Source: a virus
Lineage: Duplodnaviria; Heunggongvirae; Uroviricota; Caudoviricetes
Strand: one strand, 5' to 3'
IMG/VR virus record: IMGVR_UViG_2874968258_000006
DNA length: 41,592 nucleotides
The position numbers were made by a program. Shown here piece by piece: positions 9,001 through 11,478 of the stretch. Each line of letters begins with the position of its first letter. The stretch's first letter is position 1.

Positions 9001-11478
9001 CCTCTTACATGCCGAAAGGCAAGGAGAAGCAGGCTATGAAGCAGCAAAAGGCGATGTTAATCGCCCTGATCGTCATCTGTTTAACCGTCATAGTGACGGC
9101 ACTGGTAACGAGGAAAGACCTCTGTGAGGTACGAATCCGAACCGGCCAGACGGAGGTCGCTGTCTTCGTAGACTACGAATCCAGGAAGTAAGAGTGACCG
9201 GGCGGGGAGCTGATCCCATCCCCGCCCACCTCTGATGTGTCAGGCATCCTCAACGCACCCGCACTTAACCCGCCCATCGCTGTGATCTCTCAGCGTTTCG
9301 GCGGGTTTTTTGTTGTTTATTTCCGGTGAATTTGATTCGCGCACCTTCGCAGATAGAATCGACTCACTTAAGTAGCGCGCAGGGAGAAGAGGGATGGACC
9401 CCGAACAGGGGAGAGCTATTTATCTGGAAGGATTCTGAAGATGAAAATCGAAGAATTGCGTGAAATTTTTAGTGAAAATGGCCTCTATGCTGTGCGCGTT
9501 GAGAATGGAGCGATTGTCAGCCATTGCCGCATTAGATGTTTGCAATCTCAACAAAGGAAGAGCGGTGCTGTGTTATTTTATTTTTGTAATGGACTTCTGA
9601 CGGACGGTTTTATTTTGCGTGAGGACGAATTTGTCACATCATTACGGGTTTTGAAAGAGATTGGTTTTAAGGCTGGTTTTCTGCTTTTGCTGAAGAATAA
9701 ACTCATCTACAATCTTGAGCAGGATTGAACTCCTGCTGTGTAACACCGTGCCACCGGAGAAAGCCGATGGCACATATACAACTGGTCAAACAAACCTCTT
9801 CCGGATTACTTCTCCCGGCGACGCCGGAGAGTTGCGATTTTCTGCATCAAATCAAAATAGGTGAGTGGATACACGCAGACTTTAAGCGTGTGTGTAACTA
9901 CGCATTCCACAAGCGTTTTTTCAAACTCCTGCAACTGGGTTTCGATTACTGGACTCCGGTCGGTGGGGCGATCACGCCTCGCGAACGAAAACTGGTGTCC
10001 GGTTTCGTTGATTACCTGTGTGAATCAGTAGGCCGGGAACATACGCCAGCTCTGAGCGAAGCCGCAGAGCAATATCTGAATACAGTTGCGACACGCAGAA
10101 CCAGTGATACGGCATTGCTAAAGTCGTTTGAGGCTTTCCGCGAGTGGGTAGCCATTCAGGCCGGATTTTACACCGAGCATTTTTATCCGGACGGTAGCCG
10201 TGGGTGTCGGGCGAAATCTATCGCGTTTGCGAATATGGACGAAACCGAGTTTCAGCAGGTTTATAAATCTGTTCTGAATGTGCTGTGGAACTGGATTCTG
10301 TTCCGTAAATTTTCCTCTCCGGAACAAGTCGAAAATGTGGCCGCGCAGCTGCTGGAGTTTGCGTAATGGTGGATTTACGTAAAGCGGCGCGGGGGCAGAT
10401 GTGCACCGTCAGAATTCCTGGCTACTGCAATCACGATCCGGAAACGTCTGTGCTGGCGCATTACCGACTGGCGGGAACGTGCGGAACAGCGATAAAGCCA
10501 CACGATATGCAGGCAGCGATTGCCTGTAGCTCGTGCCACGATTTAATCGACGGGCGGGTAAAAACCAGCGATTACACCAAAGAAGAATTACGCCTGATGC
10601 ATGCAGAAGGTGTTTTTCGCACACAAGAAATCTGGAGAAAGGAGGGATATTTATGATTTACCCAACGAATACAGGAAAAAGCGGAGAACACCTTCGTCTC
10701 ACCACGCTGGAAAGTGTCTGGATTCAGGGAAAACTACGTATGTGGGGGCGCTGGTCGTATATTGGTGGCGGTAAGACGGGGAATATGTTTAACCTGATGT
10801 TGACCTCTAAAAAGCTGACAAAAACGGCAATTAACGAGGCGCTCCGGAGGATGAAAAAAGCAGGTCTGAACAAGTCTGAACTTGAGGCTTTTTTGCGGGA
10901 TATGATTAACGGTAAGCAAAAGAGCTGGCTGGCGCATTGTACTGATGCAGAGGCGTTATGTATTGATCGGGTCATAAGTGAGGTGCTGGCAGAGCATCCA
11001 GGATTGATTAGCGTCCTTCGGCAACGGTATGAGGGGCGGGGGATGACCAAACGCAAAATGGCTGAACTGCTGAATGATGCACACCCGAAATGGAGTTTAA
11101 GAACCTGTGAAAGACGCATTGAGCATTGGCTAAAGGTGGCAGAATTTATTTTGTACAAACCAATGGTTATGGCTTTTGGTATAGAGAAAAAAGTTATTGC
11201 TTTTTGACGTAAAAACTGCTTCAATTCTTGTACGCTTCGCAAAGCTGTACCGCGAGGCGAATAGCAGACATGGACATTTGAAAGAGCCCGCTTTATGCGG
11301 GTTTTTTTATACCTGAAAAACGGCACAGGACGTTAAACGTGCTGGTGGTCAGATGAGTTTGCAGATGTGATGACATATGGTTATTATTCTGCCTCCGGCC
11401 CTTTAGCTCAGTTGGTCAGAGCGAGCGACTCATAATCGCCAGGTCGCTGGTTCAAGTCCAGCAAGGGTGAAGTAGTCA

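Follow-up and report, generated by a model that had tools for sequence, protein, structure and literature searches.

The DNA that we analysed, referred to here as the window, is a stretch of 41,592 nucleotides (IMG/VR record IMGVR_UViG_2874968258_000006). We read it as Shigella/EIEC-type chromosome because an ipaH-type NEL E3 ligase gene occurs in it together with IS1, IS2, IS600 and IS911, and we read the locus described below as the start of the late operon of a defective lambdoid prophage. The four IS types riddle two prophage remnants, and at least four IS copies within these 41.6 kb lack target duplications, an IS600 included. In the second remnant, at the lambda attachment site, the integrase gene is cut by another copy of IS911. 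Elsewhere in the window pgl and ybhD lie between inverted IS1 copies, and ybhJ, ybhC and ybhB are also present. The features at the start of the late operon are as follows.

10653–11207, plus strand: Q-like late antiterminator gene, 184 aa, intact (Pfam PF06576 DUF1133, weak PF06530 Phage_antitermQ).
11279–11313, plus strand: tR'-like intrinsic terminator, a 13-pair hairpin followed by a T-run, with the G+C core GAGCCCGC/GCGGGUUU.
11358–11387, plus strand: promoter-like site TTTGCA-18-TATTAT, from a consensus scan, 10 nt upstream of the tRNA.
11397–11467, plus strand: truncated tRNA gene with anticodon CAU, assigned to tRNA-Ile2; positions 1–70 kept, positions 71–76 lost.
11468–12716, minus strand: IS911 (IS3 family), 1249 bp; its IRR end adjoins the tRNA and its IRL end the right flank.
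12717–13264, plus strand: retained spacer before the holin gene, collinear with IS-free relatives at 98.5–98.8% identity.
13265–13462, plus strand: class II holin gene, cut by IS2 18 bp before its end.
13463–14793, minus strand: IS2, 1331 bp, with the 5-bp target duplication GTAAG; absent from the sister genome L010.

Upstream of the Q-like gene lie hok/sok, Rem, DUF1367 and YbcO genes, and after IS2 follow lysozyme, Rz, terminase, portal and head genes until an IS1 at 22544 ends the prophage. The holin gene is interrupted by IS2, the early region contains an IS600, and IS1 has severed everything past the head genes; judged by these defects, the host prophage is dead.

A first, sequence-only reading had placed the tRNA in the slot behind Q and tR', where lambdoid phages carry tRNA genes and toxin or other cargo. 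The arrangement agrees with this placement. The Q-like gene, labelled 'DUF1133 family protein' in RefSeq and assigned to its Pfam families through a search made on an identical protein, ends at 11207; the hairpin and T-run follow, with an RNA-fold z-score of −3.5 for 11208–11320; and the position, behind a Q-type antiterminator and terminator and ahead of the holin–endolysin–Rz genes, is that of a lambdoid late-region tRNA module. Rfam matches to Trp leader, isrK and OrzO-P at 11223–11310 were set aside, their scores being far below the gathering scores, and probably reflect the terminator hairpin alone. Other prophages with different Q regions carry another hairpin sequence, and their homology to the window restarts at the T-run and runs through the TTTGCA-18-TATTAT site into a tRNA array. 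This site is kept upstream of the array in five of six different prophage contexts; promoter-like sites in the region are no more numerous than chance in the consensus scan. In these comparisons the array behaves as a mosaic module, one that may carry its own putative promoter.

The window holds a single tRNA, which ARAGORN places at 11397–11470 with anticodon CAT. Over the same positions, cmscan accepted the fold with 59.3 bits (Rfam RF00005, gathering score 29, E = 1.8e-10), and the covariance alignment has all four arms of the cloverleaf. The tRNA finders run three bases past the tRNA, bases 11468–11470 (TGA) being IS911, and genuine tRNA sequence stops at 11467. Around this point the window reads GGCCCTT...CAGCAAGGG|TGAAGTAGTCAACAAAAACTGGCC, with the right inverted repeat of IS911 from 11468 on, giving the junction AAGGG|TGAAGT. 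The intact tRNA-Ile copy in L011 reads ...AAGGGCCACCA, and the intact tRNA-Ile gene of an IS-free relative terminates ...CAGCAAGGGCCACCA. The nucleotides exchanged for IS911 are C71, C72, A73 and C74-C75-A76, so the claim that IS911 clips this CAU tRNA in its acceptor stem, replacing the last two stem nucleotides, the discriminator and CCA, holds to the base.

The label 'Met' that ARAGORN gives this gene reflects nothing but the anticodon. Copies identical over positions 1–70 are annotated by RefSeq as tRNA-Ile and, because intact copies carry that label, we identify the clipped gene by homology as a tRNA-Ile2, a predicted reader of AUA after lysidine modification, and not as a tRNA-Met. Acceptor pairs 3–7 are kept (5' strand GGCCCUU, 3' strand AAGGG), with C4-G69 and C5-G68 among them. 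The C4-G69 and C5-G68 pairs are determinants used by TilS, and, like A73, they count among the IleRS/TilS determinants. At the end of the stem, both remaining pairs use IS bases: 1:72 becomes G-G, flagged as non-standard by cmscan, and 2:71 becomes G-U, where the intact tRNA-Ile copy has G-C at both. The acceptor stem of the clipped tRNA therefore falls short of seven standard pairs. An A still stands at position 73, supplied by chance by the IS911 end, and the bases after it are AGT, where intact copies encode CCA.

Could such a gene still yield a usable tRNA-Ile2, with the IS end providing U71, G72 and A73, the trailer trimmed and CCA added afterwards? E. coli can mature CCA-less tRNA precursors with RNase BN and the CCA-adding enzyme, as it does for phage T4 tRNAs; the fold retains four arms and 59.3 bits; A73, C4-G69 and C5-G68 are in place; and the upstream promoter-like site is intact. 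However, the G1-G72 mismatch and the G2-U71 wobble weaken the acceptor stem, and free-energy folding yields an acceptor helix for the intact copy and none for the clipped one. The covariance score is also 11 bits below the 70.5 bits that the intact tRNA-Ile copy of L011 reaches with RF00005, and to our knowledge every E. coli tRNA gene encodes its CCA. We regard a usable product as improbable; were there one, a transposon end would have repaired a tRNA gene, and a tRNA-Ile2 with a mismatched 1:72 pair would be in use. Our preferred reading is that the truncated tRNA would most likely be poorly processed and inactive.

With 1249 bp and terminal inverted repeats the element that clips the tRNA agrees with the length of ~1250 bp and the repeats starting TGAAGTGG that mark IS911; its IRL starts TGAAGTGGCACACTG and its IRR starts TGAAGTAGTCAACAAA, with one change (G7A). 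An A6G frameshift motif lies at IS911 position 324, the element has two ORFs in frames 0 and −1, matching DNA is labelled 'IS3-like element IS911 family transposase' in RefSeq, and the identical element of L008 and L010 has the Pfam domains HTH_Tnp_1, rve (DDE) and rve_3. The second IS911 of the window (30821–32069) is 99.9% identical, one base apart (G7A in the tRNA-side repeat). That second copy is flanked by a CAT/CAT duplication, and an IS911 copy in the sister genome (L009) by TAC/TAC. At the tRNA, the flanks are GGG and TTG, without a 3-bp target duplication, as had been noticed from the sequence. Given the duplications at the other copies, the expected 3-bp repeat does arise in these genomes and is specifically absent at the tRNA. 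The missing duplication argues against a simple insertion, as we read these flanks, and not against the identity of the element as IS911. We also considered insertion targeted by a resemblance between the site and the IS911 inverted repeats, and rejected it: the best match to an IS911 end covers 13–14 of 25 bases and was equalled by 143–195 of 200 shuffles.

IS-free relatives reveal what is missing. Each flank was searched on its own in 5,426 complete E. coli genomes, and we compared the window with E. coli FDAARGOS_944 (L002/L011), RMDEC465 and others. At least 80% of the left flank was found in 10 of these genomes and at least 80% of the right flank in 9. By blast coordinates the flanks are 377 bp apart in three E. 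coli genomes, and exact comparison with FDAARGOS_944 gives 376 bp, a gap with a 2-base ambiguity in that the lost DNA ends CA and the IS ends CA too. The extra bases in the relatives define the following junction.

11467–12717, no strand: deletion junction, at which 376 bp of the IS-free relatives (L011 4816–5191) are absent.

RefSeq and ARAGORN agree on the content of the lost segment: it begins with the final 6 nt of tRNA-Ile2 and continues with tRNA-Arg(UCU), tRNA-Thr(UGU), tRNA-Gly(UCC) and a 136-bp spacer. In intact relatives the array is followed by ~680 bp of spacer and then by holin, lysozyme and Rz. The sequence-only reading had suggested an IS911-mediated deletion of whatever lay between the tRNA and the lysis genes. 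Loss of DNA from this interval is borne out by the 376 missing bases, and a deletion mediated by IS911 is the best reading of them; it stops short of the lysis genes, however, and ~545 bp of spacer upstream of the holin remain. The lost DNA was not toxin or other cargo: a search of the 376 bp for a toxin, cargo or protein-coding gene found only the three tRNA genes that follow tRNA-Ile2 and the 136-bp spacer.

The event is a local deletion, not an inversion or a transposition. We considered, and discarded, a rearrangement by inversion or translocation involving both IS911 copies of the window: the right flank is collinear with IS-free relatives and in the same orientation, the second copy has its own duplication, and a search of the rest of the window did not find the 376-bp segment.

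The same junction might in principle have arisen by simple insertion of IS911 into a natural variant without the three downstream tRNAs, the duplication having mutated away later. The tRNA modules of prophages are mosaic in build: in one relative the fourth tRNA of the array is a different one, and several relatives match only the first 241 bp past the junction. Such a variant would nonetheless not stop its tRNA gene six bases before the 3' end. Every IS-free copy found has a complete tRNA-Ile followed by tRNA-Arg, the six flank-bearing E. coli loci that we inspected (L001–L004, L011 and L013) have intact arrays, and none of the 5,426 E. coli genomes has the flanks joined as AAGGG/TTGTCGG without the IS. 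Mutational loss of the duplication fares no better, since two of the three bases differ between GGG and TTG, in flanks that are otherwise 98.5–100% identical to those of relatives. We give this explanation next to no weight.

Nor do we attribute the junction to assembly. These genomes contain multiple IS911 copies, and short-read assemblies do collapse repeats 1.25 kb long, so two copies might have been merged and the wrong flanks joined. Both junctions, the right one reading CACTTCA|TTGTCGG in the window, recur identically in L008 (GCA_900457235.1) and L010 (GCA_014725795.1), independent chromosome-scale assemblies with contigs of 4.96 Mb and 4.88 Mb, and the left junction occurs in the IMG/VR contig L015 as well. 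In IS-free relatives, moreover, just 376 bp separate the two flanks, whose orientation is the same; this fits a local deletion and is not expected from a random mis-join. An artefact is accordingly extremely improbable: the same junctions in independent assemblies indicate an inherited event. Over 6.2 kb that include IS2, L008 and the window are 99.95% identical, and L010 shares the junctions without IS2; we place the event before the IS2 insertion at 13463. Neither IS911 junction was found among the 5,426 complete E. coli genomes of RefSeq, and the left junction was absent from species-representative genomes. The shared junction could mark a lineage of carrier strains.

Taking the truncated tRNA, the missing array and the junctions as observed together, we consider an IS911-associated deletion to be very probably the origin of this locus. 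In a first step, a normal insertion of IS911 would have taken place where one of the two junctions now lies, generating a 3-bp duplication; in a second step, the neighbouring 376 bp would have been lost. The route that we favour for this loss, and rate as moderately probable, is that a second IS911 inserted nearby in the same orientation, after which homologous recombination between both copies would have removed the DNA between them. Copy-out-paste-in transposition through a circle keeps the donor site unchanged, and IS911 is said to move in this way, as Duval-Valentin et al. reportedly described in 2004. Because the donor site is left unchanged, we favour recombination over direct deletion by the transposase.

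Deletion of the 376 bp by the IS911 transposase in one step, a cleaved end attacking nearby DNA of the same molecule, is a possibility that we hold to be rather unlikely. This version, an adjacent-deletion or one-ended reaction, needs neither a second IS copy nor host recombination, and its product would look as the locus does, with the IS kept, DNA lost on one side and no duplication. The lost DNA ends CA like the IS tip, a coincidence with a chance of 1 in 16, and the IS150 cases discussed below have been called 'adjacent deletions' linked to the transposition process (PMC11708052). Weighing against it, a flanking deletion is not expected of an element that moves by copy-out-paste-in via a circle, and the target holds no IS911-end-like sequence better than chance. 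A one-step deletion by the transposase would be an unlikely departure from the copy-out-paste-in prediction. Either route, recombination or transposase-driven, would erase the duplication. The final sequence is the same under both models and so lends no support to the one-step version; the exact route cannot be told from it.

We looked for evolutionary intermediates with gapped patterns in IMG/VR and JGI metagenomes, collections with few Shigella isolates. No sequence there had IS911 at the left site and a tRNA-Arg gene behind it, and none had IS911 at the right site and the spacer ahead of it.

The tRNAs of the intact array, Ile2-CAU, Arg-UCU, Thr-UGU and Gly-UCC, read AUA, AGA, ACA and GGA. 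Phage tRNA genes are held to offset differences in codon usage between phage and host. In the prophage ORFs these codons occur 10.0, 6.6, 12.6 and 13.4 times per thousand, against 5.0, 2.0, 6.0 and 6.0 in adjacent chromosomal ORFs, that is, two to three times more commonly in samples that are small (3,495 versus 1,987 codons). This excess fits a codon-compensation role of phage tRNA genes. Intact arrays are present elsewhere in related genomes: the genome that holds L010 has one in another prophage (L009), and a scan of species-representative genomes found three copies of the intact Ile–Arg junction in each of S. flexneri SFBU1023 and E. coli ECMA0423. Loss of the array was probably neutral, both because the prophage is already dead and because sister genomes keep intact arrays in other prophages.

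The practical consequence is one of annotation. The locus is due to be annotated as a tRNA-Ile2 pseudogene beside an IS911-associated 376-bp deletion, where tRNA finders will give a functional tRNA-Met. Beyond annotation its importance is small: the class of array, IS3-family adjacent deletion and IS-driven decay in Shigella are each already known, and what we describe is the ordinary decay of a dead prophage.

The array itself has a counterpart in phage 933W, which is said to carry ileZ-argN-argO upstream of stx, reportedly described by Plunkett et al. in 1999; our literature search found no papers on the 933W tRNA gene names. Clusters of the 933W type resemble the array in their slot between the Q antiterminator with tR' and the lysis genes, in their first two genes, an Ile2-type CAU tRNA and then an arginine tRNA with anticodon UCU, and in reading rare A-ending codons that match phage codon usage. 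Unlike the 933W cluster, the intact array here has four tRNAs (Ile, Arg, Thr and Gly) with no toxin gene after it, and in the window the damaged first tRNA gene alone survives.

For the deletion, the closest parallel comes from IS150 in three populations of the E. coli long-term evolution experiment. Of 68 IS150 events, 14 came with deletions that ranged from 14 bp to 49 kb; a duplication was present in none of the 14, and all arose in several steps, the simple insertion first and the adjacent deletion later (PMC11708052). Those 'IS-del' events are alike in that an IS3-family element is kept, adjacent DNA is lost and no target duplication is present, and the 376-bp loss falls inside their size range. 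They differ in having been followed through time samples, whereas here we have the end product alone, in a natural lineage and with IS911. The locus is thus a base-resolved natural example of duplication-free deletion by the IS3 family, a class shown experimentally for IS150.

The wider setting is also familiar. Shigella phage Sf6 has IS911 in its nin region, opposite to the late genes, with deletions nearby (PMC5630979). It shares with the window an IS911 inside a lambdoid/P22-like Shigella phage genome, transcribed against the late genes; in Sf6 it is the IS that the deletions remove, whereas at the present locus the IS has been retained and DNA next to it has gone. According to PMC7373316, five IS have expanded in every Shigella species; IS1, IS2, IS600 and IS911 belong to these five, and the 41.6-kb window contains each of the four. 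The genes tallied as inactivated in that study were protein-coding ones, and the words 'tRNA' and 'prophage' are absent from it; the locus described here adds that IS expansion in Shigella wears away not just protein-coding genes but tRNA arrays of prophages too.

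We compared locus L019 of Shigella flexneri SFBU1023 (669-5095) and locus L021 of Escherichia coli ECMA0423 with window 10765-17000. Both carry the four-tRNA array intact in the same prophage module, with an IS911 interrupting the Q-like gene at the equivalent of window 10765. Past this IS911, the counterpart of window 15535-17000 lies in inverted orientation. Judged from these alignments, the Q-to-Rz segment of the two loci looks like a separate IS911-mediated inversion.

Within the window, the IS911 abutting the truncated tRNA gene and the second copy of the element differ solely at IRR position 7 (window 11474), where the former has A in place of G. 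Further insertion sequences of the window include the following.

Insertion sequences of the window other than the tRNA-abutting IS911
1-2754: nest of partial and tandem IS600 pieces, at the start of the window
6480-7743: IS600, with a 3-bp duplication, GTA
13463-14793: IS2 of 1331 bp, flanked by a clean 5-bp duplication (GTAAG)
22544-23311 and 25909-26676: two IS1 copies, inverted, 768 bp each, 100% complementary
30821-32069: IS911 copy 2, with the duplication CAT, cutting the lambda-type integrase
35549-36812: IS600 without a duplication (TTC / TTA)

The IS2 lies in the holin gene, 18 bp short of the gene end. Of two assemblies that share both junctions of the tRNA-abutting IS911, GCA_900457235.1 has this insertion but GCA_014725795.1 does not, indicating that the IS2 is younger than the IS911 event. 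The two IS1 copies bracket pgl and the LysR-type gene ybhD, and a 9-bp duplication is absent at both. The left IS1 has prophage head genes on one side and chromosomal DNA directly on the other, so prophage 1, the remnant holding the tRNA gene, lost its tail half at an IS1. The IS600 at 35549 forms the join between a DUF551 gene and a tail-fibre gene.

The lambda attachment site, in the ybhC/ybhB interval, is occupied by another prophage remnant (prophage 2), which holds an ipaH-type gene. Features of this remnant are listed with three further Rfam matches in the window, all above the gathering score.

Effector, integrase and RNA features of the window
8866-9041: sok antitoxin RNA (Rfam), prophage 1, adjoining a hok gene
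28938-29008: naRNA4 (Rfam), between ybhJ and ybhC
31978-32817: integrase of prophage 2, interrupted by IS911 copy 2
33761-33849, minus strand: sRNA-Xcc1 (Rfam), prophage 2, adjoining the antirepressor gene antA
38771-40534, minus strand: ipaH-type effector gene, 587 aa, LRR_TTSS and NEL E3 ligase

In the interval 11297-11396 of the window, homology of the tRNA module among otherwise different prophages begins at the terminator T-run; the terminator hairpins themselves vary in sequence while keeping their pairing. The homology includes a conserved promoter-like site, TTTGCA-18-TATTAT, directly upstream of tRNA-Ile. Array content differs among prophages, since the fourth array gene in an EIEC prophage of E. 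coli CFSAN029787 (locus L003, 6484-6554) is annotated as a 71-nt tRNA-Val rather than tRNA-Gly. The tRNA array may constitute a self-contained 'moron', equipped with a promoter of its own.
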